Positions 2,158 to 30,408 of a stretch of DNA of 64,000 bases are shown here, piece by piece. Made by a program: the position numbers and the translations under genes. This DNA comes from a virus (Duplodnaviria; Caudoviricetes). The number at the start of each line of letters is the position of its first letter. Position 1 is the stretch's first letter. The stretch is taken from positions 426 to 64,425 of IMG/VR virus record IMGVR_UViG_3300046673_000164, one strand, 5' to 3'. Below the pieces are notes generated by a model, which had not been told where the DNA came from, ran no database searches, and was given only the letters and a program-made list of their open reading frames with translations.

Positions 2158-2573
2158 TTTGGCAGCCCCGCGGACGGTGTTGGATTATCGTGCGAACGGA
2201 TGATGCGAAACATTTCCTTCTGTGTTTCCTTGATTTCCTTCACGTCTCCCTTGATGTCCCCAAGTTTTTCGTTCGTCGCCTTGCGTTCATCGGCCGTCAA
2301 TTGTTTTTCGACCTCCAGGGCAGTCGAGACCCTGCCGGCCTCAACCTTCGCTGCATCGGCAACCGTGGCCGCGACAGTAGCGACCTTATCGGCCTTCTCT
2401 GTCGATCGATCAACAGCTTTCATCACCTCACTTTGTGCTGAGCACGCTTTATTAAAGCCCACGGCAACGATGGTCAGCGTGATCGCTCCCATCGCCAAAA
2501 TGGCCGTAATCATCGCGTATAGCGGCCGATGCTTTTCCCAACAGAACTCGCGGGACGGAAGGGTCGTCATCAT
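2154..2573 (-). CDS. Single-TM coiled-coil membrane protein (holin/spanin-like)
   Basis: TM segment LYAMITAILAMGAITLTIVAVGF followed by a coiled coil; lysis-cassette position. Confidence 0.55.
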   Translation of the reverse strand: MMTTLPSREFCWEKHRPLYAMITAILAMGAITLTIVAVGFNKACSAQSEVMKAVDRSTEKADKVATVAATVADAAKVEAGRVSTALEVEKQLTADERKATNEKLGDIKGDVKEIKETQKEMFRIIRSHDNPTPSAGLPK

Positions 2574-7432: not shown

Positions 7433-8302
7433 TTACCACAGTTGGGGCACCTTTCCTGTACACCTCTTGGTTGGGTCAACGATGAATCTCCTATCGACGT
7501 CCGAAGATGCGATGGAAAAACGCCGGGCGGGTTTACGCTCGACGGGCGGGGCGGCCACCTCCGCGGAAACGGTCGCAGTGACCACGGATTGAGTGTTTGC
7601 CCAATCGTTCAAGTAGCTGCCCCAATCTGTGTCGCCGACTTTCGGTGTTAAGCTCGATGGATTCGGCCAAGGACTACGATCGGGCATTACCCAAGCGGGC
7701 TTCGGCAGGGCCGGCGTCGGCTGTGGTATGGGTGGATGCGGAGTCAACTTGTGAATCACCGCCTCGCCGCCGTGGATGAGGCCGCCGATCAATCGCCGAA
7801 TGGGTTTTCGCTTCTGAAAGAAGTTCACCACTGGGCCTTGCGTATTGTTCGGATTCGCGGCGGCCGTCTTGCCCGTCAGCGGCCAGATGGCGGTCGAAGT
7901 CCAGATGTACGGCACGGACGAACCGGGGGGCGTTGCCTGCCAGTAGCCGGGCGTCATCACGGCGTATTGTCCGGTCATGGGGTTCAGAATTGACCTGGGG
8001 GCCGTGGCCCAATTCTCGATAACCGGAACCACGTAGGGCAGTGGGTTGATGTAGGGAGGCACGAAGCCACCGCCCCAGCCACCCCAGTGTGGATGATCCC
8101 AGCCGCCGCCGTGAAAAGGCTGCGGGCCGGGTCCGCCGTGAAAGTCGGGATGCGGCGGGCCGCCGTGGAAATCTCCGGGACCGGTCAGCGGGCTAGCCAG
8201 CGGGCATGATTGCCCCCCGCAGCAGCCTTGGCAACATTGGGCCGCGGCCACGCCGCAGCACGTCAGAACGATCAGAAGAGCCAGTAGGATTCGCGGAACC
8301 AT
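7433..8302 (-). CDS. Secreted Gly/Pro/His-rich protein
   Basis: Signal peptide; CCQGCCGG; FHGG repeats; GGAGG RBS. Confidence 0.65.
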   Translation of the reverse strand: MVPRILLALLIVLTCCGVAAAQCCQGCCGGQSCPLASPLTGPGDFHGGPPHPDFHGGPGPQPFHGGGWDHPHWGGWGGGFVPPYINPLPYVVPVIENWATAPRSILNPMTGQYAVMTPGYWQATPPGSSVPYIWTSTAIWPLTGKTAAANPNNTQGPVVNFFQKRKPIRRLIGGLIHGGEAVIHKLTPHPPIPQPTPALPKPAWVMPDRSPWPNPSSLTPKVGDTDWGSYLNDWANTQSVVTATVSAEVAAPPVERKPARRFSIASSDVDRRFIVDPTKRCTGKVPQLW

Positions 8303-8340
8303 GAGAACTTACCTCCATTTGCAATTGCCTGTTTCCCATT

Positions 8341-8384
8341 ACCCTATTATAACCTACGCCAAACCCTATTATAACCTACGCCAA
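8341..8384 (-). promoter_or_regulatory. Tandem 22-bp duplication of a putative late promoter (TAGGTTATAATAGGGT)
   Basis: accctattataacctacgccaa occurs twice in perfect tandem; the same 12-mer lies upstream of the capsid operon. Confidence 0.65.
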
Positions 8385-8409
8385 AGAAAACCCAAAACCA
8401 AACCAAGAA

Positions 8410-9987
8410 TCAAGACGACGCCAACCGGGAACCGCTTGCAATCTTCGTAACAGTAATTACACCGTCGAAGGAGAAGTCGAGAGAACGATGATCGATCAGC
8501 ACTATTACCTTCCGCTCCGCCTCGCTGCGCGCCTGTAAGTGCTGTAGCAAATCGTCGACGCCTCGCGGAGACAAGTGCTGGGTAGGCTCATCCCATACTT
8601 CCAGATTGAGCTGCTCTTCTTTCCGGCTGTTTATCAATCCAGCGATTCCCATCTGCGCGGCCAGCCTCAGCCGCTGCGTAGCCCCACCACCCCAGCCCTT
8701 CCACGGGGCATACTCTCCGGATTCGCCGGAGTTAATCGCCACATTGAACCCACGGGTCACGCCTCCACTCTTGTTATCCCTCTCTACGTCCAGCCTAATC
8801 CGCCACCGCTCCAGGCCGAGCTGAATCAAACCACTGTTGCAATGCATCTCCAGCTCGGACAACGTCGAATCCATTATCCATAGCCGTAAGTCTCGAAACC
8901 CATTAACCCAATACAACGCCCTAGCTTCGCTTGAGGCGGCGAGGTCCCGCTTGGCGACCAGAAACCGCTTCCTCGCCTTGGATCGCGTCAGATCGCATTG
9001 CAACGCCTCCAGGGCGGCTTTATGGGGGTTGGAGTCCTCCTCCGCCAGCCGCTCGCGGATCTGCCGCAGACTGGCCTTGATTTTAGCTAATTCAACCCGG
9101 GCATCGGATATATCAGACGTAACCGCGTAAATCTCCTTGCGCTGCTTTGTCTCCCATCGCTCCCGATCCCTACTAATCACACTACCACAATACTTACACC
9201 GCTCATCCTTCCATCTAGCAGACTTCAACTCGCCCTCCAATATAGCCTGCTGTCTATCAGCCTCCTCCAAGACAAACACCAACCCCCGCTTCTTCTCGCG
9301 CAGCTTTGCATACTCAGTCTCCAGGCCAAGCCTGCGCTGCTCGTTCTCCTCCTCCCACCGCTCACTATTCTCTCTCGCGGACTTCCGATGCAGCCGCATG
9401 GCTTCGATCTTGCCCTTCTCCCGCTCGATCTGGTTTGTCAGTAATGCGGCAGCCGCAGCGTAGGTGTCCACATCTGCCTTAGCTTTGTCCGCCCGCTCCT
9501 CCCAATAGTCGAGGCCCAACGACTCGGAAAACAGGGCCAGCTTGTCGCTCGGCCCCAAGTCGAGGAAATACTCAGAGAACTGCCCGATCAAGACAGAATG
9601 CAAGAACTCCGTCCCGTTGCGGCCGATCAGCTCGTCTACCCGATCCTGAATCGTCAAGTCGCCATCGATCCGCAACTCGTTGGGATTCTGCTGCCGCCAC
9701 ACGCATCGTACCCTTCCGCCAACCTCCAGCTCCAGGCCCACCCAAGCCTGCTCCTCTCCCCAAGACACGACACTTCCGGCCCGCAATCCCCGCTCCGTCA
9801 CTCCAAACAAGCACCAATAGACGGCCGACCACAGCGTGGACTTCCCGACGTCGTTGCCCTCCAGGGCCTCATCCACTTCATTGATGCCACGCATCAGATA
9901 CAAGCCGGGCTCCTGTGGTAACTCAATCTCCTGCCGCTCACGGAAGGTGCGAAAGCCTTTCAAGCATATCTTGAGTAATCGCATCAT
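8410..9987 (-). CDS. SbcC/Rad50-like ATPase (recombination nuclease subunit)
   Basis: Walker A GNDVGKS, coiled coil with CKYC zinc hook, Walker B VWDEP, IDH. Confidence 0.9.
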   Translation of the reverse strand: MMRLLKICLKGFRTFRERQEIELPQEPGLYLMRGINEVDEALEGNDVGKSTLWSAVYWCLFGVTERGLRAGSVVSWGEEQAWVGLELEVGGRVRCVWRQQNPNELRIDGDLTIQDRVDELIGRNGTEFLHSVLIGQFSEYFLDLGPSDKLALFSESLGLDYWEERADKAKADVDTYAAAAALLTNQIEREKGKIEAMRLHRKSARENSERWEEENEQRRLGLETEYAKLREKKRGLVFVLEEADRQQAILEGELKSARWKDERCKYCGSVISRDRERWETKQRKEIYAVTSDISDARVELAKIKASLRQIRERLAEEDSNPHKAALEALQCDLTRSKARKRFLVAKRDLAASSEARALYWVNGFRDLRLWIMDSTLSELEMHCNSGLIQLGLERWRIRLDVERDNKSGGVTRGFNVAINSGESGEYAPWKGWGGGATQRLRLAAQMGIAGLINSRKEEQLNLEVWDEPTQHLSPRGVDDLLQHLQARSEAERKVIVLIDHRSLDFSFDGVITVTKIASGSRLASS

Positions 9988-10220
9988 GTCACCATATGTA
10001 TATGATGCTCAACTTCCAATATCGCATCAAACATACTACTAGCTTGGCCACGAGGAAGATAGATCCAGCGTACTTTTCCGCCGACATTGTCTATTATTTC
10101 CCAATCTGCCCCAAACACATAAGCAACAACCTGATCTTCTACCCACCTCTCCATAGCCAACAACTCAAGCTCCTCAGACTCGGCATCCCATTCAAAATGC
10201 GCTGTCCAACCATTTTTCAT
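9984..10220 (-). CDS. Hypothetical protein
   Basis: 78 aa, ATGA-coupled on both sides. Confidence 0.55.
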   Translation of the reverse strand: MKNGWTAHFEWDAESEELELLAMERWVEDQVVAYVFGADWEIIDNVGGKVRWIYLPRGQASSMFDAILEVEHHIHMVT

Positions 10221-11194
10221 AACAACTCCCTCCCCACAGCCGCGTCCGCGTCGTCGATACCGGCCTGCTCGCAGTAGGCCTCGAACTGCTCCCGTGGAGT
10301 CCCAATCTTCGCCGTCGGCCCGTCAAGCCGTAACCGCTTCTTCCCGGCTTCCACTAAGGACACCCCACATAGCAGCAAATCGTTGCGCTCACACATCCGC
10401 CGAATCTTCCGCTGATACTTCTCCCAGCAGTCGAACTCCGATCGCCGCAGCGATAGCTCCACCTTGACCTGATCCCCAGGCTGCCACAAAGGCTGATACT
10501 CCAGCTCGTCGGGATCGCTGATCCGCAGCACTAGCTTCTGCGGGCTGATTGGATACAAGTCTTTGTGCTGCTTCCCGTCGATCAACACCACCCGCGGCTT
10601 GAACGCGTCCCCGAAGCGGATCGGATAAGGCGCGCCAACATACTCTACCGGGCCAACCTTCTGTGGGACATGAATGTCTCCAGCCCATACTTTCCCACAC
10701 TTCTCCAGGTCCGACGTAGAACAGCCAGACAGGCTATGGCCAGACTCGCTTGTAGCCCCACGGAACTTCTGATGGCATCCAACAAAATCGACCCGAACGC
10801 TTCTTAGCCGTTGAGGATCGCCAAAAATAGGATCGCGCATGTGCGGGAAGAAGGCCCAGCGACAATTCCCAATCTCAACTATCTGCGGCTTGGCGTAGTA
10901 ATAGCAACGCGGATGATGGGCCAAGAATCGAAAGAACGGGCTGGAAGCCTCCGCATAGTCGTGGTTGCCCATCAGCAAATGAACCGAGATTCCCTCGCGG
11001 ACGAACTCAGTCAGGGCGGCCACCAACCGATTGACGAGAACGCTGGAGTGACAATCCTTCTCCTCGGTCAAGTCGCCAAGAATCACCAGAGAGTCGAAGC
11101 GGATGCCCCACAACCACTTACTCAAGAAGTCCCAACGATAGGCGTCGTTTGGCCGGTCGGTCAGGTGCAGATCCGAAGTAAGTAGAGTTAGCAT
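10217..11194 (-). CDS. SbcD/Mre11-like metallophosphoesterase nuclease
   Basis: SDLH, GDL, GNHD, GDIH motifs; next to SbcC. Confidence 0.9.
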   Translation of the reverse strand: MLTLLTSDLHLTDRPNDAYRWDFLSKWLWGIRFDSLVILGDLTEEKDCHSSVLVNRLVAALTEFVREGISVHLLMGNHDYAEASSPFFRFLAHHPRCYYYAKPQIVEIGNCRWAFFPHMRDPIFGDPQRLRSVRVDFVGCHQKFRGATSESGHSLSGCSTSDLEKCGKVWAGDIHVPQKVGPVEYVGAPYPIRFGDAFKPRVVLIDGKQHKDLYPISPQKLVLRISDPDELEYQPLWQPGDQVKVELSLRRSEFDCWEKYQRKIRRMCERNDLLLCGVSLVEAGKKRLRLDGPTAKIGTPREQFEAYCEQAGIDDADAAVGRELL

Positions 11195-11708
11195 TCTTCC
11201 CTCCGTGAATGAAGTCTTCGGGATCGAGTCTGAGCAAGTTGTCCAGATAGGCTGTCCAGAAGCCTACGTTCGGAAACGAGGCTAATAATACCGGGCCGAA
11301 GCAACCGGACAGTAAAGGCAGAAACACCAATGCCCGCCTCGCATTCTCTTTCACAATCATCAAAGGCATCTTTTTGCATTTCCATCCTTGCTTACAGCAC
11401 TTCTTCCACATCGCTACCAGCTTGCCTCTTCCATAAACAAGCAAGTCAAGATCAAGCCGTTTGTAGCTCTTTGCCTCGACAAAGAACGTATCCGCGAACG
11501 CGAAGCCGTCGGGATGGATGGCAGCAAGGTCGCCCGCCTGATGGTTCAACTCGCCGCCCTTCTTCCGTAACGTTGTCGCCCGCCCTCCGCTCTGGCTCGA
11601 CCGCCAGAACAAATCTTTGCTCTTGCCCCCGCTAACCCATAGGGACAGCTTGCGGCATAACTCCCGTTCGAAGCCGCTTCCCTTCGCCTTGGATGCCTTA
11701 CCGCCCAT
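11118..11708 (-). CDS. Holliday junction resolvase (PD-(D/E)xK)
   Basis: KAKGSGFERE...GDL...FVEAKSY; TAATG-coupled start. Confidence 0.8.
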   Translation of the reverse strand: MGGKASKAKGSGFERELCRKLSLWVSGGKSKDLFWRSSQSGGRATTLRKKGGELNHQAGDLAAIHPDGFAFADTFFVEAKSYKRLDLDLLVYGRGKLVAMWKKCCKQGWKCKKMPLMIVKENARRALVFLPLLSGCFGPVLLASFPNVGFWTAYLDNLLRLDPEDFIHGGKNANSTYFGSAPDRPAKRRLSLGLLE

Positions 11709-13270
11709 TAGTACTTCCTCCTGGTCGGAGCGAAGGTTGCTTCCACCCTGGCCCACTCCACCTTGACGGCCCTCGCCAGCCGTCGACGCTCAAGCGCGTA
11801 CTCCTCGTCGGCCAGGTCCTGCAGCCAGCGACCATACTCTTTCCAGTCTCCGAAGCCACTATCCACGAACGCCTTCGGCCCTCCCCTCCCCAATGTCTTC
11901 AGCCAGTCACAGGCCGCCGCCACGTCGTCGATTCCGTAGCTGAACAGAATAGGGAAGTCCGCCTCGCGGAACGGCGGACCGATCTTGTTCTTTTTCACTT
12001 TAGCCCGTATCTGCACCCCAACAACCCGCTCCACCTTGTTGATCGTCCGCTTCAGCTGCTTCATGTGGGCGAGCCATACGATCTGTGAGGCGTAAAAGTC
12101 CAGGGCGCGTCCCCCAGTCCGAGTATGCTTTTCCCCGAACGCCACCCCAATATTGTCTCGCACCTGAGACACAATACACAAAGTCATCTTCGCCTTATCC
12201 ATCTTCCGCGTCAGGCGGCGGAACAGCTGGCCCATTTGCTTCGGCTTGTTTCCCCCATAGGTGCTCTCGTCGATCCCGCGGGCCTGCTCCGCCCGATCCG
12301 AAACTGCGTCTAGGCTGTCGAGAATATAAAGCGAAGGGCGGTCGCCGTACTTGTCGAGCAGGGACGTTATATCCTCGAACACATCCTCCACAGTATGCAA
12401 AGTCCTCTTCATCTTCACCTGCCCAACAGGCAAGCCGAGGCTCTCCGCATAAGCGCTATCAAAGGCCGCCTCGGTTTCGCGATAGAAGATTTTGCTGTCA
12501 CGATACAGCTTGGCGAAGTTGGCGCTAGCTTCGATTGCCAGCAGCGTCTTCCCAGTACTATTATGCACCACAAACCCACTAGCTATAAAATTGTGGTGCT
12601 TCTCCTCGACGGTAACGTCATAGGTAATCTCGGAGTCTACCGACTGAATGGACACTATTTTCGATAACTCAATCGCCTTAGTATTGGCCGGCATTTCTTC
12701 AGCATGGGTTACATAATGCTCCTTATATCGCGAGACTTCCACCCCACGAGCGCTTCGCCAGCTTCTCACGGGGGTTCCCACCCGCAACATTCCATCCGCC
12801 AAACAACCCCACCCGCCATCGGTGTGAAACAAATGATCTTCTGAAGCCTTGAGGCTGTTACCCCGATCATCGCTTATCGCATACAATCGCTTACGGCATG
12901 AACGACTAACTGCCGATACCTGAGTTAATCCTACATATCCTCCAACATCAGCCACCAAATACGTTAGAGCGTTAGCATTACGGTTTGGGTGATTCCCAGT
13001 AAATCGATTGAATAGCGTTCGAAGCGTCATCTTCTTTGGGCTAACCCCACGCTGAACGGACACAATCGTATCACCAGAGAGGCATTTGTCGCCCACGATA
13101 TTGACGATCTTCCCCTCTGGCCAGCCTCCGCCAAGAGCGCAGTCGAGAAGCTGGCAGCCAGAAGAAAACAACCTAACGGAGGAGGGCGGAGCAAAGTACG
13201 CCCCACCACTCTTCCGCTTCGGCCGCGGTGCTAAGGAGTCGTCGCTCAGTGATAATCGTTCGCGATCCAT
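11708..13270 (-). CDS. recA: RecA/UvsX-like recombinase with intein
   Basis: LDCALGGGWP, P-loop GDK|STGKT split by an intein, ILDS, SQVR, GGRALDFYAS, KNKIGPP. Confidence 0.92.
   Translation of the reverse strand: MDRERLSLSDDSLAPRPKRKSGGAYFAPPSSVRLFSSGCQLLDCALGGGWPEGKIVNIVGDKCLSGDTIVSVQRGVSPKKMTLRTLFNRFTGNHPNRNANALTYLVADVGGYVGLTQVSAVSRSCRKRLYAISDDRGNSLKASEDHLFHTDGGWGCLADGMLRVGTPVRSWRSARGVEVSRYKEHYVTHAEEMPANTKAIELSKIVSIQSVDSEITYDVTVEEKHHNFIASGFVVHNSTGKTLLAIEASANFAKLYRDSKIFYRETEAAFDSAYAESLGLPVGQVKMKRTLHTVEDVFEDITSLLDKYGDRPSLYILDSLDAVSDRAEQARGIDESTYGGNKPKQMGQLFRRLTRKMDKAKMTLCIVSQVRDNIGVAFGEKHTRTGGRALDFYASQIVWLAHMKQLKRTINKVERVVGVQIRAKVKKNKIGPPFREADFPILFSYGIDDVAAACDWLKTLGRGGPKAFVDSGFGDWKEYGRWLQDLADEEYALERRRLARAVKVEWARVEATFAPTRRKY
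12560..13084 (-). mobile_element. Mini-intein (175 aa) in the RecA P-loop
   Basis: N-terminal CLSGDT, block B SEDH, block F TYDVTV, C-terminal VVHN followed by Ser; more AT-rich than flanks. Confidence 0.9.
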
Positions 13271-23290: not shown

Positions 23291-24001
23291 CTAGCCCTTC
23301 AACGCGCCGCGCTTCTGCAGCGAGGCCAGAGTGCTCTTGATCGCCGCCAGCTGCACCCCAATTGTGCCCTTGCCCGGAACAATCCCCTTCTTCTCCAGCT
23401 TGGCCAAGACCTTGTCGGTCAAAGCCTTGGGGCTCTTGTCCGGAGCGGCGAGGAAGGCGTCGAGGTACGCTTCCCGCAAGTTCTCGACAATGCCGGTGCC
23501 CGGCGCCTTCTTCTCGAACGGGGTGTCGCCCTTCTTCTTCGCCTTGGGCGCCTCTTCCTCGTCTTCGTCCTCATCGTCGGCGGCCTTGGCCTTCTTCGGC
23601 TTCTTGGCCTTGGGCGCCTCTTCCTCCTCGTCCTCGTCTTCGTCCTCATCGTCGGCGGCCTTGGCCTTCTTCGGCTTCTTGGCCTTGGGCGCCTCTTCCT
23701 CGTCCTCTTCCTCTTCGTCCTCATCGTCGGCGGCCTTGGCCTTCTTCGGCTTCTTGGCCTTGGGCGCCTCTTCCTCCTCGTCCTCGTCGGCGGCATCGGG
23801 GTCGACGATCGCCTTCTTGGCCTTGATCGCCAAGACGGCCTCGTTGGTCCAATCCTGATCCGCTTCGGGCAGCGTCGCCCAGTCGTCCTCCGGCGCCTTC
23901 AGTACGGCCTTGACCAGCCGCTCCAGATACGCCTGCCGCTCCTCGCCGTCCTCCGGCTTGCAGCCAGTCAACTTCACCAATGCTTTCAATGCACTCGCCA
24001 T
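23291..24001 (-). CDS. Charge-block repeat protein (alternating acidic and histone H1-like basic runs)
   Basis: (DEDEEEE APKAKKPKKAKAAD) repeated about 3.5 times; strong G/C codon bias. Confidence 0.75.
   Translation of the reverse strand: MASALKALVKLTGCKPEDGEERQAYLERLVKAVLKAPEDDWATLPEADQDWTNEAVLAIKAKKAIVDPDAADEDEEEEAPKAKKPKKAKAADDEDEEEEDEEEAPKAKKPKKAKAADDEDEDEDEEEEAPKAKKPKKAKAADDEDEDEEEAPKAKKKGDTPFEKKAPGTGIVENLREAYLDAFLAAPDKSPKALTDKVLAKLEKKGIVPGKGTIGVQLAAIKSTLASLQKRGALKG
23531..23795 (-). repeat. Tandem coding repeats of about 65-80 bp
   Basis: cggccttggccttcttcggcttcttggccttgggcgcctcttcctc three times, with variable GAN spacers. Confidence 0.85.
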
Positions 24002-24014
24002 AGCTCGATCCCTT

Positions 24015-24425
24015 TCAAAGCTCTGCCCAACAGGTGGGCGTTTCAAAAAGCCGCATGGACACCATGCCCATGGGCAGACCTACCAAACGTTGACGAATCT
24101 CGGTCGCAATCTGCTCGATCATGTTCTCGACCGTAGGTTCGTCCTTCATCTCCACTATACAAATATCCAAGTTGCTATCTCGCAGTATTTGCAGTAGTGG
24201 ATCACAAGAGCATAACGCAACGGCGTGATCCCACTCCGCCAGTACTCCCGCGATCAGGCATTTGACTTCGTAGAAGTCCATCACCATGCCATGGTCCTCA
24301 GCGTTCCCCCACAGCACAATCTCAATCCCATAGGTGTGGCCGTGGAGGTTATGGCACTTGCCTTCGTGCTCGGGCAAGCGGTGGGCCATGTCGAAGGTCG
24401 TCTTGAATCCGATCCGTGCCATCAT
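24015..24425 (-). CDS. queD: 6-carboxytetrahydropterin synthase
   Basis: FDMAHRL, CHNLHGHTY, WDH, PTVEN, ETPT. Confidence 0.93.
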   Translation of the reverse strand: MMARIGFKTTFDMAHRLPEHEGKCHNLHGHTYGIEIVLWGNAEDHGMVMDFYEVKCLIAGVLAEWDHAVALCSCDPLLQILRDSNLDICIVEMKDEPTVENMIEQIATEIRQRLVGLPMGMVSMRLFETPTCWAEL

Positions 24426-25015
24426 TGCACCCCTATGATCTTCTGAGTTTGTAGGCTGAGGCGCCACCCGCGACGCATACACAAGTCGATGCATGTCCTC
24501 AGGTTGGCCTTGTTCTTCTCATCGTCGTGGTCATCACGAGGCTGAACGAAAGTCGGGATAGGTCCAGTATAGCACTCCTGCCGATCTTCGGCCCCAACAA
24601 CAAACTTAAAAGCGCTGGCATTCTTGACGATGCCGAAACGAACGGCGTGACTCGGCTTCGGCGAGCAGACGATCGAAACGAACTTTGGAATTGCCCACTC
24701 AATCTCGGGCTGCCAAAGTGTGCCGTTGGTTTCGATCTGCACCGCGCACTTCTGAGCAAACAGAATCTTGACCAGCAAAGACAAGGGCTGCGTGAAGGGC
24801 TCACCTCCGGTGATGACCACGAAGCGATTGGGTGGGATGATCTGCTCGACGGCATACATAATGTCCGCCTCGCACATCTCTTTGGCATCAGTGGTGTGGT
24901 CGGTGTCGCACCACGAACAGGAGAGATTGCAGCCGGCCAACCGGATGAATACGGCCGGAGTGCCTACGTCAGGGCCTTCCCCTTGCAGGGAGGCAAAGAT
25001 TTCCTTGACTCGCAT
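24422..25015 (-). CDS. queE: 7-carboxy-7-deazaguanine synthase (radical SAM)
   Basis: SLQGEG, GCNLSCSWCDT, TGGEP, ETNGT, SPK, SLQTQK. Confidence 0.95.
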   Translation of the reverse strand: MRVKEIFASLQGEGPDVGTPAVFIRLAGCNLSCSWCDTDHTTDAKEMCEADIMYAVEQIIPPNRFVVITGGEPFTQPLSLLVKILFAQKCAVQIETNGTLWQPEIEWAIPKFVSIVCSPKPSHAVRFGIVKNASAFKFVVGAEDRQECYTGPIPTFVQPRDDHDDEKNKANLRTCIDLCMRRGWRLSLQTQKIIGVQ

Positions 25016-25739: not shown

Positions 25740-26702
25740 CTAATCCTCGAACACGATTCTCCGTTTCGGGGCCTTCTCCAGCAGCTTGTCAAGGGCCGCT
25801 TGCACGCGGGCCATCTCACCAGCCACCTCGCCCCGAGCCACTGAACTCGTCCGCAGCTTGTCAGGCTTCTTCCCCTTGAGCACGTCGCGGGCCCGAATCA
25901 CCAATCCCTCCAGCTCAGCATCGCCGGCGATGTTCCTTGCTTTGAACAGATCGATGAACTCAAGCAGCTTCTCAACGGCCGTATCCTTGAAAACCTTCTT
26001 CTCGCCGTCCGGCGTCGGCTCCAACCGCTCGGCCAGATGCCCGACCAAGCTGCGGAAGGCGTCCCGCAAGGCCTCCTGTATGTCGTAGGCGGCATTCGTC
26101 CAGGTCTCCTCAGCCTTCTTCTTCTCGCTCTCCCACAGGGCCTTGCCGATCTTAGCCTCCGACGGCACGCCAAAGTCCAAGAACCGCCGCTCGACCCACA
26201 CCGCAGACCGTAAGGCACGGACACTGGGATAATTGCCGGCATCGAACTGATCCTTGAGCTGCTCTTTCGCATTCTCGACCAGCTTCGGATAGGCCTGGAA
26301 AAAGGCTTCAAACCTGCTGAGGTACTTGACCTCGGCCGCTTCGATCTTGTCGCTGATGTCGCCCACCATGCTGATCGGAACGAGGTAGGTCCCGCGGCGG
26401 AGCGGGCTCGGCAGGCAGCGGGCCAGCAACCAGCGGCGAAGCTCGCCGGCCACCGCCACGGCCTCCCCATACTCCTTGCGGTTGACAATATCCTTATTTA
26501 GCCTCAGCATGGTCTTGTCCGCCACGGTCTCTACCTTCCCCACGTCGGCCTTGCGGTAGATACCCGGCCGATGAAACACAAGATCAAGAACCACCACCTG
26601 ATCCATAATAGCCTTGGCATCCCGCACCGACACTTCCGATGCCGGGGTCGCGGCCGCCACTTCCTCTTTGATCTCGTCCAAACTCAATCTTGCGCGCACC
26701 AT
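25740..26702 (-). CDS. DUF3150-like protein
   Basis: CLPSPLRRGTYLVP...FFQAYP...FDAGNYPS pattern; follows the AAA ATPase. Confidence 0.55.
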   Translation of the reverse strand: MVRARLSLDEIKEEVAAATPASEVSVRDAKAIMDQVVVLDLVFHRPGIYRKADVGKVETVADKTMLRLNKDIVNRKEYGEAVAVAGELRRWLLARCLPSPLRRGTYLVPISMVGDISDKIEAAEVKYLSRFEAFFQAYPKLVENAKEQLKDQFDAGNYPSVRALRSAVWVERRFLDFGVPSEAKIGKALWESEKKKAEETWTNAAYDIQEALRDAFRSLVGHLAERLEPTPDGEKKVFKDTAVEKLLEFIDLFKARNIAGDAELEGLVIRARDVLKGKKPDKLRTSSVARGEVAGEMARVQAALDKLLEKAPKRRIVFED

Positions 26703-26749
26703 TTTCTGGTCTCCCTTGCTTATGCCTTGAGCGTTGTGCTCTCAGTCAG

Positions 26750-26791
26750 GAGCCCGCGGCGGAGTCGAACCGCCGGTCACCACTCGGGCTC
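26750..26791 (-). ncRNA. tRNA-like minihelix (acceptor stem plus T-arm)
   Basis: GAGCCCG-AGTGGTGAC-CGGCGG-TTCGACT-CCGCCG-CGGGCTC. Confidence 0.7.
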
Positions 26792-26800
26792 ACCACCCCA

Positions 26801-28255
26801 TTATATGCTGATCCTCCGTTTCGATCCAGCCTGCTGCCGACGATAGACGCCCGGTTTGCTGGCGCTGATATACTTGCCCTCAGCTGCATCCCTCGCGGCC
26901 TTCACGACCTCTGGGTTCGCCTTGCCGTTGCTGGAGGCGAACTGCAACACGTCCTTGAGCGAGCGGCCCATCTTCCAAGCCATCTCGCATATGTTGCGGA
27001 TGTCCGACCCACTCCAGTCCGTATCGTCCGGCTGCTTGTCCTTGGCGTCGATCTCGAACTTGCCCCGATGCAATTCCCACATCGCTGCCCGCTCCTCGTC
27101 GTCGGGCATATCGAACATCCACACTCCGTAGCGGAAGCGGCGGACCAACTCCGGCGGCACGTTCATCTTGTTCATGCTCGCCACAAAGAACACCTCGCGG
27201 CCGCCAATGGCGATCAGGGTCTTTACCACATTACGAACGTTGGCCTCGCTGCTGCCCACCAACCCCTCTTTCGTAGCGTTAATGTCGAACACCAGCGGCA
27301 ACCGATCAAAGGTGTTGGCCAGCGCCTTGCTGTAGAGGCTCTTGCCCGTACCGGGAGGGCCGAAGGCAATCTGCCCCGCCCAACCGTTGTCTTCCATCGC
27401 GGAGAGAAACACCTGAAGAGCGTCTTGGCTCGTTCCGCTCAAGTCTCCCTGCGAGCCAGCCATCGACTTTTCAAGCTCTTCGACCCGCACCACCACCGCC
27501 GGCGGATGGGGCCCGGTAAACAAAGCCTCGCCAAAATCCTTTGCGTTGCTCAACCCGCGAATGTCGTCGAACGTCTCGCTGCCCTCGTCGAAGGTCAGGC
27601 CCCGGCGCTCGATGGCCTTCCGCTTGCCCTGCCACAACTGGGCGATGTCCACTCCTTCTTTCGTCAGGGCCATTGCCAGCTCTTGCTCGGCGGAGAACGC
27701 TGACAAGCCACGGAGGGCTTGCACCACCCGCTCTAAGGTCGCCTTGTCCAGCTCACCAGCAGTCTCGACGGCGATCTCGCGCAGCCGGTCCTGGTCGGGC
27801 AGTGGCTCGTCGATCACCACCACGTCGCGGGCCAGCGGCTTCGGAAGCTGGTGGTCGGCGGCCAACAGAACGAGCATGCGCTGGTTCTGCTTGTATTCAT
27901 CCCGCAGATTCCAGCAGCCCTGCACAACGGGCAACCCACGGTCGAAGCATGCCTGCGAGTTGTGCCAAAACACCACGGTGCCGTCGGGATAGCTCTGAGC
28001 GGCGAGCAGGAAGGCTGCGGGGTCTCCCTCCGTGTCGGACGAGGCGTAGGTCAGTCCAGCCTCATTCACCGCGACCGTTCCGCGGCACACGTCCCACGCC
28101 AAAATCGGGGCATCTTCGTGGCCTTTGACGGTCGGCAGCACTTTGCCGATCTCTCGGATCGTCGAAGCCGGGTCGGGCGTGTTGATCGCCACCAGTGGCA
28201 CTCCGGCTCGGCAGGCCGCCCGGTACAAGTCCAGCCAGTTCTTTTGATTCTTCAT
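26801..28255 (-). CDS. Ycf46-like AAA ATPase
   Basis: WD...G N-domain, GPPGTGKS, VGSSEAN, PPELVRRF, SGSDI; likely start MKNQKN at 28255 (the track extension runs through a ribozyme). Confidence 0.8.
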   Translation of the reverse strand: MKNQKNWLDLYRAACRAGVPLVAINTPDPASTIREIGKVLPTVKGHEDAPILAWDVCRGTVAVNEAGLTYASSDTEGDPAAFLLAAQSYPDGTVVFWHNSQACFDRGLPVVQGCWNLRDEYKQNQRMLVLLAADHQLPKPLARDVVVIDEPLPDQDRLREIAVETAGELDKATLERVVQALRGLSAFSAEQELAMALTKEGVDIAQLWQGKRKAIERRGLTFDEGSETFDDIRGLSNAKDFGEALFTGPHPPAVVVRVEELEKSMAGSQGDLSGTSQDALQVFLSAMEDNGWAGQIAFGPPGTGKSLYSKALANTFDRLPLVFDINATKEGLVGSSEANVRNVVKTLIAIGGREVFFVASMNKMNVPPELVRRFRYGVWMFDMPDDEERAAMWELHRGKFEIDAKDKQPDDTDWSGSDIRNICEMAWKMGRSLKDVLQFASSNGKANPEVVKAARDAAEGKYISASKPGVYRRQQAGSKRRISI

Positions 28256-28276
28256 CACTTGGTCTCCGCCAGAGGA

Positions 28277-28335
28277 ACCTGCCTCGTCAGGAGCGGTAGG
28301 TAATCTCCGCTCGACGCCCCGAAGGGCGTTTCGGC
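28277..28335 (-). ncRNA. Hammerhead ribozyme, type II
   Basis: GCC-GAAA-CGCCC[TTCG]GGGCG-TC-GAGCGG[AGATTACCTA]CCGCTC-CTGACGA-GGC-AGGT; full core, GUC site, loop ACCT complementary to 3' AGGT. Confidence 0.92.
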
Positions 28336-28568
28336 TAGTGCTGATGAACGTGGCCGTCGTGGCAATGTTGCTCGAAAGCCTTTTGCATCGACGATCCCAA
28401 CTCCATCTTCGTTCGCTTGCGGCAGGTGGTCTCGCCACCCGCAAGCTCGTTGATCCGCTTTATCAGCTTGTCGGCCGATAGGTGGTTCTGCCCGCTGATC
28501 CCGTCCGTGATTATGCTGATCGTTCCGTCCTCCAGAATCTCGATCTTGATTTCGTCTTGTTGGGCCAT
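28335..28568 (-). CDS. DUF2997-like small protein
   Basis: IKIEILEDGTISI.TDGISG motif; sits between DUF1257-like and Ycf46-like genes; His-rich C-terminus. Confidence 0.65.
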   Translation of the reverse strand: MAQQDEIKIEILEDGTISIITDGISGQNHLSADKLIKRINELAGGETTCRKRTKMELGSSMQKAFEQHCHDGHVHQH

Positions 28569-28569
28569 C

Positions 28570-28881
28570 TCACCACCCTCCCTTCGCTGCGACCGCCTGG
28601 GTCTCGGTCTTCCACATTGGCTTCCAGTTCATCGCCTGGCAGGCCAACAAGACGGCCTGCTTGCTGTAGGAGCGTTTCAGGTCGTTGACTGTCCGCTGAT
28701 CCTTTGCGATCGCCTTACCAGCAGCCAAGTCGATCTTAATCACCCCCCGCATGTCGCTGAGGGTCACGTTGTTGCCGAGCCGGGTGAATCGATAGCCCAG
28801 CTCGACGGCCGCCTTCTCCAATAGGTCGACATGCTCGACCTCGAACGCGACCGACACGGTCTGTACTTGGTAACATGGCAT
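28570..28881 (-). CDS. DUF1257/Ycf35-like protein
   Basis: DLLEKAAVELGY...LKRSYS pattern; GGAGG RBS; start MPCYQV. Confidence 0.6.
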   Translation of the reverse strand: MPCYQVQTVSVAFEVEHVDLLEKAAVELGYRFTRLGNNVTLSDMRGVIKIDLAAGKAIAKDQRTVNDLKRSYSKQAVLLACQAMNWKPMWKTETQAVAAKGGW

Positions 28882-28900
28882 CACTTGGCCTCCAAGAGGA

Positions 28901-28959
28901 ACCTGCCTCATCAGCGCCGGTGGGCTAGGTCCGGCGGACGCCCCGCAGGGCGTTTCGGC
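28901..28959 (-). ncRNA. Hammerhead ribozyme, type II
   Basis: GCC-GAAA-CGCCC[TGCG]GGGCG-TC-CGCCGG[ACCTAGCCCA]CCGGCG-CTGATGA-GGC-AGGT. Confidence 0.93.
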
Positions 28960-29495
28960 TATTCACAATGGCTCTTGAGCGTCTTGGCCTGCGACGGAGT
29001 GATCGGAGCCGGCTCGCCCCGCTGCCCCTTTTTCCCGGCGAGCAACTGAATCTTGACCGTCGACATGCTCAGACCGTATTCGCCGGAAATGTCGGTGACG
29101 GCCGCGAAGGCGTCTTCCACATCCCAACCATTCTTTCCCATCCAACGGAGGACGGCAGTCACCGAGTAGTCAAACACCCTGGCCCGATGGACAATGCGGG
29201 GCGCCCGCTCTTTCTTCTCGGCCGGCGCGTCCTTATATTCCTCGGTTACCACCGCGCTGGTCGATCCGGAGCGCGCGTAGCCGTTGAAGCGATCCGCCTT
29301 AGCCAACGTCTCGTTGATTGCCTTCTGAAAGAGGCGGTCGGCGTGGGTCATCACCTCGACGGTCAGCTCAGCCGCATCAATTCGCTGTTCGGCCAAGATC
29401 GCTGCGTCCTCTTTGACGTGGTGTGGGTAGATTCCGTAGTGGTCGGCCAAGGCCGCAATCCGCACCGCCAACTCAGCTCTGATTTCGCTTTGCAT
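28959..29495 (-). CDS. Hypothetical early protein
   Basis: 178 aa, AAGGAGACC RBS; first gene after a sigma70-like promoter. Confidence 0.7.
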   Translation of the reverse strand: MQSEIRAELAVRIAALADHYGIYPHHVKEDAAILAEQRIDAAELTVEVMTHADRLFQKAINETLAKADRFNGYARSGSTSAVVTEEYKDAPAEKKERAPRIVHRARVFDYSVTAVLRWMGKNGWDVEDAFAAVTDISGEYGLSMSTVKIQLLAGKKGQRGEPAPITPSQAKTLKSHCE

Positions 29496-29855
29496 CGTAA
29501 GGTCTCCTTGTTCTCGCCTTGCGGGAAGTCCGCTCGGTCGAAGAGGCCGGGGCGGTCGCGAACCCGCCTTACGCTAACCGTCCTTGTAACTTGATTTGGT
29601 TTTATCTCCCTTCCCCCTATTCCCACCGCAGTGTGGCCACCGCGGCTGGTTTCGGTGTTGTTTGGGCCGGGTTGTCGGCCTCTAGGTTTTGGTTCCCCCT
29701 CCCCGACCCGATCTGCACCTGCCGCGTCATTGCGGCTTCCGGTGGATCGGGTCGGCTCAGTTTCGCCCCGCGTCTCATTTCCCCTTCATCGTTTCCCCCA
29801 CCTCTGGGGCCAGGTCGCGTTTTGGTTTGGTCTTGTCTTGTCCTCGTCTGCTTAT

Positions 29856-29884
29856 ATATTAGGGGTAATCGCCCAAAAGATCAA
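29856..29884 (-). promoter_or_regulatory. Sigma70-like early promoter
   Basis: TTGATC-17 nt-TAATAT on the minus strand in an AT-rich spacer. Confidence 0.6.
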
Positions 29885-30042
29885 TAGCAGCCCAGGAAAA
29901 ACCCAGCCTAGATTTTCGGATTCGGTCCGAACTCGTTACTAGATAAGCAGTTACGACGAAAAAATAGTTGGAAAATAACCGAGTTTTGGGGGCCAAAACA
30001 GGCGTCGGAAGGCCGATGGCCACCTGAAAAACGACTCTGTTT

Positions 30043-30408
30043 TCAGAGCGAAAGCCTTGTTTTCCCGGGCTTTTTTCGTGTTTTCAGCGTTTCCACCTCA
30101 GAATCCAGGGCGATTCTCGGCTGCTTTCTCTGCCGCAGCCCACCCCCGCCGTCCAGGCCGATCCGCTGGCGGGGCAGGTTAGATTGCGGCCGGACGGCCG
30201 GCTCGCTGGAATCCTGCCCGCAGTAGCCCTCGACCTTGCCCCGCAGAGAATAGCCGGCGCCTCCCCACTCGGAATAGACCCAAGGTTTAGTCGTCGGCAC
30301 AAAGCCCTGGACCAGCGCCAGCCGAACCGTCTCGCCAGCGGCATGCCCGACCACCCTCGGAATCGGATGTGATTCACTCCAATGCCAAATCCTAATATGA
30401 ACCCCCAT
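30043..30408 (-). CDS. Hypothetical protein
   Basis: AAGGAGACC RBS as in neighbouring genes; TTTGTATAG motif upstream. Confidence 0.45.
   Translation of the reverse strand: MGVHIRIWHWSESHPIPRVVGHAAGETVRLALVQGFVPTTKPWVYSEWGGAGYSLRGKVEGYCGQDSSEPAVRPQSNLPRQRIGLDGGGGLRQRKQPRIALDSEVETLKTRKKPGKTRLSL

Follow-up and report, generated by a model that had tools for sequence, protein, structure and literature searches.

What does a self-cleaving RNA do when its outermost base is also the last base of the stop codon of the upstream gene? The question is raised by a locus of a virus (Duplodnaviria; Caudoviricetes), the 64,425-bp IMG/VR record IMGVR_UViG_3300046673_000164 (CheckV completeness 63%), of which the 64,000 nucleotides (nt) analysed here, positions 426 to 64,425, cover nearly all; we refer to this whole stretch as the window. 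A first-pass annotation, made from the sequence alone, had proposed that the minus strand carries a type II hammerhead ribozyme fused to the UAG of the preceding gene, p178. We call this element HH1. It has a sister, HH2, 624 nt downstream, which overlaps a UAG in the same way and shares the 3' tail, and the two elements bracket a cassette of two small genes, p103 and p77.

We consider it rather probable that HH1 and HH2 are functional sense-strand type II hammerheads which cut a phage operon into gene-block mRNAs. Sequence, fold, family membership, covariation and layout are matters of observation, from which we infer cleavage in vivo and effects on gene expression. The host unit would be the early/replication operon of the phage, transcribed from the minus strand, in which each ribozyme fills the whole intergenic space, from the upstream stop codon to the Shine–Dalgarno sequence (SD) and AUG of the next gene. 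Each would fold once the 3' strand of stem II and the tail have been transcribed, form a pseudoknot between loop I and the tail, and cut itself after GUC. The polycistronic transcript would then fall into three pieces, the first ending with p178, the second carrying p103 and p77 (624 nt) and the third beginning with the genes of an AAA-family ATPase and of p320. The upstream products would extend 22 nt past the stop codon and terminate in the hairpin of stem III, which would carry a 2',3'-cyclic phosphate; the downstream products would have a 5'-OH where the hairpin of stem I begins. As a consequence, the stability and the translation of neighbouring genes would be uncoupled.

Synthetic ribozyme insulators (of the RiboJ type) and hammerhead switches that mask the SD are engineered parts of 5' untranslated regions, built on a type III satellite ribozyme. 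HH1 and HH2 would likewise strip the upstream RNA context just 5' of the SD; unlike these parts, they are natural, of type II, and located between two coding genes.

Identity and fold of the two hammerheads

When the whole window was scanned against all 4227 Rfam families (cmscan), HH1 matched Hammerhead_II (RF02276) at 28960-28897(-) with 39.8 bits and E = 1.3e-4, above the gathering score of 37 bits, which HH2 does not reach (35.8 bits). The whole-window scans found no other ribozyme family and no tRNA. A descriptor search also finds HH1, with the topology of a type II hammerhead: stems I and III are capped by loops, stem II is open, and stems I, II and III have 6, 3 and 5 bp, respectively. 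Stem III consists of CGCCC and GGGCG closed by a UGCG loop; the positions of the other parts are collected in Table 1. The first-pass annotation had read the minus strand from 28961 to 28897 as we do, had recognised a type II hammerhead whose core is complete, and had noted that stem II starts with the G of the upstream UAG, all of which is borne out by the present analysis. Its cleavage position, between 28937 and 28936, stands as a prediction, with GUC at 28939-28937.

The conserved core of hammerheads reads C3-U4-G5-A6-N7-G8-A9 and G12-A13-A14, position 7 being free to vary, and it is found in both copies (CUGAUGA and GAA in HH1, CUGACGA and GAA in HH2). Both also have the A15.1-U16.1 pair and a nucleotide other than G at H17 (GAAA...GUC, with C17 at 28937 and 28313). 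Mispairs next to the core are absent: pair 1.1-2.1 is C-G in HH1 and G-C in HH2, pair 10.1-11.1 is G-C, and pair 15.1-16.1 is A-U. HH1 and HH2 therefore follow the rules for the core and its adjacent pairs quoted from PMC3088659, which supports their identity as ribozymes. A pattern limited to the core (CGAAAC..GTC..CTGANGAG) has two matches in the window, compared to a mean of 0.01 in 100 dinucleotide-preserving shuffles, none of which reached two.

Both copies lie on the coding strand of a long run of minus-strand genes, and their stems II are identical. The resemblance between the two modules, of 81 and 85 nt, extends exactly from stop codon to start codon and ends there. Three pairs of stem I differ, all by compensatory changes; the other differences concern loop I, a single base in loop III, core position 7 and the spacer of the SD.

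Compensatory changes in stem I are also seen in more distant sequences. A pattern for the subtype defined by stems II and III is found in at least 117 stretches of viral contigs. Within RF02276, the AGGUUCC tail marks a small subfamily, with 4 viral and 14 metagenome stretches, of which we aligned 20 distinct members. All six pairs of stem I change on both sides in this alignment: 47 cells are changed on both sides, against 13.3 in shuffles, and the covariation score was reached by none of 500 shuffles. In stem I, 93% of the cells are paired; sliding the partners lowers this to 36–45%. Nothing can be learned in this respect from stems II and III, because they are nearly invariant and fixed by the search pattern.

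Similarly, no two-sided covariation of the pseudoknot is seen within the subfamily, because the tail is fixed by the search pattern. Complementarity between loops and tails can nevertheless be compared: among the matches listed, 79% of the 82 members with a long loop I have at least 4 bp between this loop and their own tail, whereas pairings of loops with the tails of other members reach 4 bp or more in 37% of cases. HH2 has one complementary register, ACCU:AGGU, and HH1 has two, ACCU:AGGU and AGCC:GGUU. The first-pass annotation had proposed the former for HH1; the complementarity is indeed present, but homology points to another register. In 19 of the 20 subfamily members, the triplet ACC sits 1–3 nt before the 3' strand of stem I. 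The homologous column of HH1 holds GCC, which would pair as G-U, C-G and C-G, the preceding A adding an A-U pair. The ACCU of HH1 is at the 5' edge of loop I, a geometry common to 6 of 68 members among the matches listed. Both registers are possible in HH1, and AGCC:GGUU is the more likely one, because it is GCC that occupies the homologous pairing column.

Type II hammerheads were described by Perreault et al. in 2011 (PMC3088659), with mutational proof of the pseudoknot between loop I and the 3' tail, and as far as that description goes nothing essential distinguishes HH1 and HH2 from them or from RF02276. The core CUGANGA, GAA, the A15.1-U16.1 pair, the C at the cleavage site, the pseudoknot and the phage context are shared; stem II has 3 bp here, 2 bp being common there. 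The same work reports that multiple hammerheads flank genes or short gene blocks in prophages, proposes a processing of long phage transcripts into mRNAs of gene length, and shows that a triple hammerhead arrangement from Agrobacterium cleaves in vivo in E. coli. Three type II hammerheads of Desulfovibrio vulgaris cleave in vivo, as detected by cyPhyRNA-seq (PMC8782182); they are of the same type as HH1 and HH2 and are also near phage-like genes, in another organism and at other loci. This indicates that predicted ribozymes of this kind do cleave in cells. The structure of a pseudoknot hammerhead, reported to be fast, has been solved (PMC11300833). It is stabilised by a pseudoknot, as HH1 and HH2 would be, but its pseudoknot replaces helix II, whereas helix II exists here and the pseudoknot links loop I with the 3' tail.

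The layout from stop codon to start codon

The matches listed, to which the counts of this paragraph refer, comprise 126 unique hammerheads of the subtype, including HH1 and HH2. Five of them are too near the end of their locus and six have no upstream open reading frame (ORF) of at least 50 codons, which leaves 115 for which the position of the upstream stop codon relative to stem II could be counted. In 90 of these, the stop is at most 2 nt away from the edge of stem II: it is flush (offset 0) in 50, overlaps stem II by 1 nt (offset +1, always with a UAG) in 18, and ends 1 nt (offset -1) or 2 nt (offset -2) before it in 13 and 9, respectively. It lies further upstream, at offsets -3 to -50, in the other 25, and it is never more than 1 nt inside the ribozyme (0/115). 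A start codon is found 15–34 nt 3' of stem II in 73 of 119 cases.

The AGGUUCC subfamily shows the same tendency, the stop being flush in 6 and overlapping by one base in 10 of the 20 members (16/20). The fusion to a stop codon is the norm of the family, and is not special to the HH1 locus. The layout is looser in the 12 hammerheads (11 unique) which Rfam detects in phages that carry a homologue of the AAA ATPase. The stop offsets are -20, -18, -10, -5, -5, -2, 0, +1 and +1, and two of these elements have no upstream ORF. This range, from -20 to +1 among 11 unique hammerheads of relatives, shows that a flush stop is not obligatory.

The base before stem II is an A in all 20 members of the subfamily, and it is preceded by U, G or A just as needed for a stop codon. 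The A and the G of the ribozyme itself thus supply two thirds of the stop codon. As for the rest of the phage, it is tightly packed: the gaps at the other gene junctions of the window range from -8 to +3 nt. The fusion to the stop codon is probably best read as compaction, and compaction alone is enough to account for the stop and start layout, considering that the junctions of this phage otherwise range from -8 to +3 nt.

A start codon is also present inside the ribozyme. The core CUGAUGA of HH1 contains an AUG (28909-28911, -) which is in frame with p103, 10 codons 5' of the conserved start, and the ORF lister starts p103 there, inside HH1. The N-terminus MPCYQVQTVS is conserved in L129, the best syntenic relative, so that the true start of p103 is at 28881.

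The words "stop codon" do not occur in the main texts, supplements aside, of three articles on these ribozymes, PMC3088659, PMC6765202 and PMC8782182. A full-text literature search, which likewise covered articles without their supplements, found no paper describing the abutment of hammerheads on stop codons.

Relatives, gene-block swap and competing explanations

The AAA protein used alone as a query has no match in viral or metagenome contigs, and blastn of the region 26800-29500 against 50,697 deposited phages gives no match either. An alignment of AAA homologues retrieved 80 viral loci, 50 of which were searched with Rfam as whole records. In L129, the gene order is SNF2 - p178 - AAA - p320 - p103 - p77 - sigma-like - QueE - QueD, and the order AAA-p320-p103-p77 is found in six further loci. 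Compared to L129 (2956-6495), the region 25740-29495(-) of the window thus has the p103-p77 and AAA-p320 blocks swapped, with HH1 and HH2 occupying two of the three junctions thus created; the third (25739-25618) shows neither a ribozyme nor any notable structure. No hammerhead is found in the whole record of L129, whose junctions are plain and short. As in the prophage arrays described in PMC3088659, two ribozymes of the same orientation bracket a two-gene block, and which genes are flanked varies from one relative to another; here, the flanked block has moved relative to L129.

The 12 hammerheads detected by Rfam belong to nine relatives and all lie on the strand of the AAA gene, 0.56–9.3 kb upstream of it. 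Hammerheads are dispensable in relatives; they are sporadic, yet they favour the early region. The descriptor search finds hammerheads in 3 of the 80 AAA loci, a number that is a lower bound because variants found by Rfam, such as those of L123 and L143, are missed. In L123 (and identically in L124), the hammerhead at 2288-2362(+) is 1.1 kb upstream of the closest AAA homologue (50% identity); its core, CCGAUGA, has an apparent change at the conserved U4 and still scores 40.3 bits.

The metagenome contig L218 contains, at 2210-2516(-), a homologue of p77 (42% identity) directly followed by a hammerhead, whose loop I contains the same eight bases as that of HH2 and whose stem I differs by compensatory changes. 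Arrays of four hammerheads were observed in L120, within 1.1 kb (24-1089, -), and in L008, within 5 kb (7845-12885, +). The copies of one genome share stem I in L120 and the tail in L008, which suggests that they have spread within the genome. The relatives that share the tail (L008, L120, L121, L068 and others) have no proteins in common with the window according to tblastn. A match among genome contigs, in a metagenome-assembled genome of Acidobacteriaceae (L122), fits the 3' pattern only; it is without GAAA or stem III, hence a chance match which gives no clue about the host.

Some observations speak against the conclusion that HH1 and HH2 are functional ribozymes that process the transcript. 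HH2 is 1.2 bits short of the Rfam cut-off (35.8 vs 37); it is found by the descriptor search, and its minimum free energy (MFE) structure is the canonical three-stem hammerhead. The nested MFE structure of HH1 (-25.8 kcal/mol) is not a hammerhead, the canonical fold being nearly tied with it (-25.1 kcal/mol), and stem I of HH1 has a probability of about 0.07 in the nested ensemble, owing to a possible pairing of loop I with GGCAGGU. Since the energies of nested folds take no account of the pseudoknot, this competitor is not strong evidence either way. The z-scores of thermodynamic folding are not significant and do not settle the fold of HH1. A hammerhead is found by Rfam in only 9 of the 50 whole records that carry an AAA homologue, and the purpose that hammerheads serve in bacteria and phages is still described as undefined in a review of 2019 (PMC6765202). 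The sub-threshold score of HH2 and the non-canonical MFE of HH1 could also be expected from a chance or decayed motif devoid of ribozyme activity. This is extremely unlikely, considering that there are two copies where 0.01 is expected, both on the sense strand and exactly in intergenic gaps, and that both cores are perfect and the differences in stem I compensatory.

The explanations in which the ribozymes are active for another purpose have to be weighed against processing of the transcript. The first-pass annotation had suggested control coupled to translation. A terminating ribosome would sit on stem II, GAAA and the 5' half of stem III, the rate of upstream translation would gate folding and cleavage, and the flush stop would have been selected for this reason. 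About 10 nt beyond a stop codon lie inside the ribosome, so that occlusion at termination would be unavoidable and control by occlusion at the UAG is physically plausible. It would fit with the flush or overlapping stops of HH1 and HH2, and with the close abutment, never deeper than one base, that is seen in the family. However, compaction yields the same layout, the downstream side being equally minimal, a stop codon is easily formed from the A and G that the ribozyme conserves, and some of the hammerheads detected by Rfam in relatives have distant stops or no upstream ORF at all; we therefore find this proposal rather unlikely. Cleavage could also unmask the ribosome binding site, if CCUC pairs with the SD until cleavage and with the GAGG of the core once the 5' fragment has been released. 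CCUC is indeed 1 nt after AGGUU in both copies, with GGAG(G) 3–5 nt further, and some predicted folds contain the pairing between CCUC and the SD, but these folds have a low ensemble frequency and z-scores near 0, and of 119 related tails among the matches listed only 15 contain CCUC or CUCC, which makes this switch very unlikely. In yet another scenario, the p103-p77 mRNA would be a stable circle: the 624-nt segment has the 5' half of HH2 at its 3' end and starts with the 3' half of HH1, which together would rebuild a complete hammerhead through the shared stem II, and the ends would be joined by the ribozyme or by an RtcB-type ligase. The two halves share an identical stem II (GCC/GGC) and core, the 5'-OH and cyclic phosphate expected from known hammerhead chemistry would suit ligation, and the possibility was raised in PMC3088659. 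That article nonetheless reports that spliced or circular products were sought and none detected, and only the 3 bp of stem II would hold together ends that are 624 nt apart, so that we give circularisation hardly any credence.

A role at the level of DNA was considered as well, in which the stop-to-start modules of about 80 nt are intergenic linkers by which recombination moves or duplicates cassettes, the RNA activity being secondary. This would explain why the likeness of HH1 and HH2 is bounded exactly by the stop and start codons, why the ribozymes occupy two of the three junctions that are new relative to hammerhead-free L129, why the p77 homologue of L218 is directly followed by a hammerhead with an HH2-like loop, and why copies are alike within a genome (tails in L008, stem I in L120). 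On the other hand, there is one rearrangement and one comparison genome, and the ancestral order is assumed. The p103-p77-AAA order is found in L133, L138 and L145, with about 1 kb between p77 and AAA, and among these only L138 has a descriptor match, 1.3 kb upstream of p103. Moreover, since all 12 hammerheads of the nine relatives are upstream of AAA, this region may simply favour them, and the compensatory divergence of stem I points to selection on RNA. A linker role with secondary RNA activity seems to us distinctly unlikely. A combined view would be that the stop-to-start module is a portable unit that has been selected as such, with two possible roles, a ribosome-gated folding by which cleavage would report on upstream translation and a use as a DNA recombination linker that would move cassettes (here p103-p77, swapped with AAA-p320); we regard it as unlikely, and processing of the operon mRNA by two active hammerheads remains the reading we prefer.

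Gene neighbourhood and significance

Table 1. Positions of the HH1 and HH2 ribozymes, of their parts and of the adjacent genes in the window
Feature	Position	Strand	Details
HH1, type II hammerhead	28897..28960	-	Rfam RF02276 and descriptor search
UAG stop codon of the 178-amino-acid ORF (p178)	28961-28959	-	its G (28959) begins stem II of HH1
HH1 stem II	GCC 28959-28957 with GGC 28907-28905	-	counted on the sequence
HH1 GAAA	28956-28953	-	
HH1 GUC	28939-28937	-	U16.1, then C17 at 28937
HH1 predicted scissile bond	between 28937 and 28936	-	C17 is 28937; first base of stem I is 28936
HH1 stem I hairpin	28915..28936	-	CGCCGG / 10-nt loop ACCUAGCCCA / CCGGCG
HH1 core CUGAUGA	28914-28908	-	
HH1 pseudoknot tail AGGUU	28900..28904	-	partner: ACCU 28930-28927 or AGCC 28926-28923
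HH1 tail AGGUUCCU	28904-28897	-	
HH2, type II hammerhead	28273..28336	-	core CUGACGA; predicted cleavage between 28313 and 28312; Rfam 35.8 bits (relaxed threshold)
Predicted excised 624-nt mRNA segment with p103 and p77	28313..28936	-	deduced from the two predicted cleavage sites
p178, gene directly upstream of HH1	28959..29495	-	ORF ends in UAG; 178 amino acids
SD and AUG of p103	28879..28893	-	SD GGAGG 28893-28889; AUG 28881-28879
p103, first cassette gene	28570..28881	-	103 amino acids; homologues in 21 relative loci
p77, second cassette gene	28335..28568	-	77 amino acids; homologues in 36 relative loci; UAG (28337-28335) overlaps HH2 stem II by 1 nt
SD and AUG of the AAA ATPase gene	28253..28267	-	SD GGAG 28267-28264; AUG 28255-28253
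AAA-family ATPase, directly downstream of HH2	26801..28255	-	PF00004, E = 1.8e-7; phrog_8638

On the minus strand, the genes follow one another in the order DnaB-like helicase, SNF2 helicase, a gene of 121 amino acids, a gap of about 550 nt, p178, HH1, p103, p77, HH2, AAA ATPase, p320, a protein with a sigma-70-region-2-like domain, QueE and QueD. The ORF of 121 amino acids, 30043-30408(-), just after SNF2, is matched by a homologue in the corresponding position of L129 (tblastx E = 1.4e-10) and is therefore a real small gene. The gap upstream of p178, 29496-30042(-), holds two terminator-like hairpins with U runs (30049-30034 and 29999-29983). These are followed by an AT-rich stretch with a sub-threshold sigma-70-like pair (TTGATC, 17 nt, TAATAT) near 29882-29854. 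One transcription unit probably ends in this gap, where the unit with the ribozymes would also begin.

In L129, the AAA gene immediately follows a homologue of p178 (56% identity). In many related phages, p103 and p77 are conserved as neighbours of each other, close to the genes of AAA and p320. p103, p77 and p178 match no Pfam or PHROG family at default thresholds. A weak lead connects p77, which has a His-rich C-terminal tail, to DUF2997 (Atlas score 0.82; Pfam E = 0.071, 13.4 bits for a cut-off of 24.1).

Further downstream, at 24015-25015(-), the presence of QueE-like (phrog_2076, E = 1.7e-44) and QueD-like (phrog_2389, E = 1.6e-24) genes suggests synthesis of a 7-deazaguanine precursor by the phage, which would presumably serve to modify DNA. 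An ORF of 251 amino acids, 23291-24046(-), contains several near-identical acidic/basic repeats (EEEAPKAKKPKKAKAADDEDE-like) and weakly matches a PHROG annotated as a single-strand DNA-binding protein.

The identification of the ribozymes itself adds to a known kind, since type II hammerheads, their pseudoknot and flanking pairs were described in 2011. Our additions are modest: a quantified rule for the stop-to-start module, and the observation of a pair of ribozymes at the junctions of a gene-block swap. The rule, a flush stop codon, an SD and start codon within 15–34 nt, and the reuse of the A and G of the ribozyme, helps to place gene boundaries when phages are annotated. The locus also offers a natural example of paired type II hammerheads with which to address a role in operon splitting that has been proposed since 2011 and is still not established. 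Finally, the presence of ribozymes at swap junctions provides a lead: it may be asked whether such modules mark the mosaic boundaries of phage genomes.

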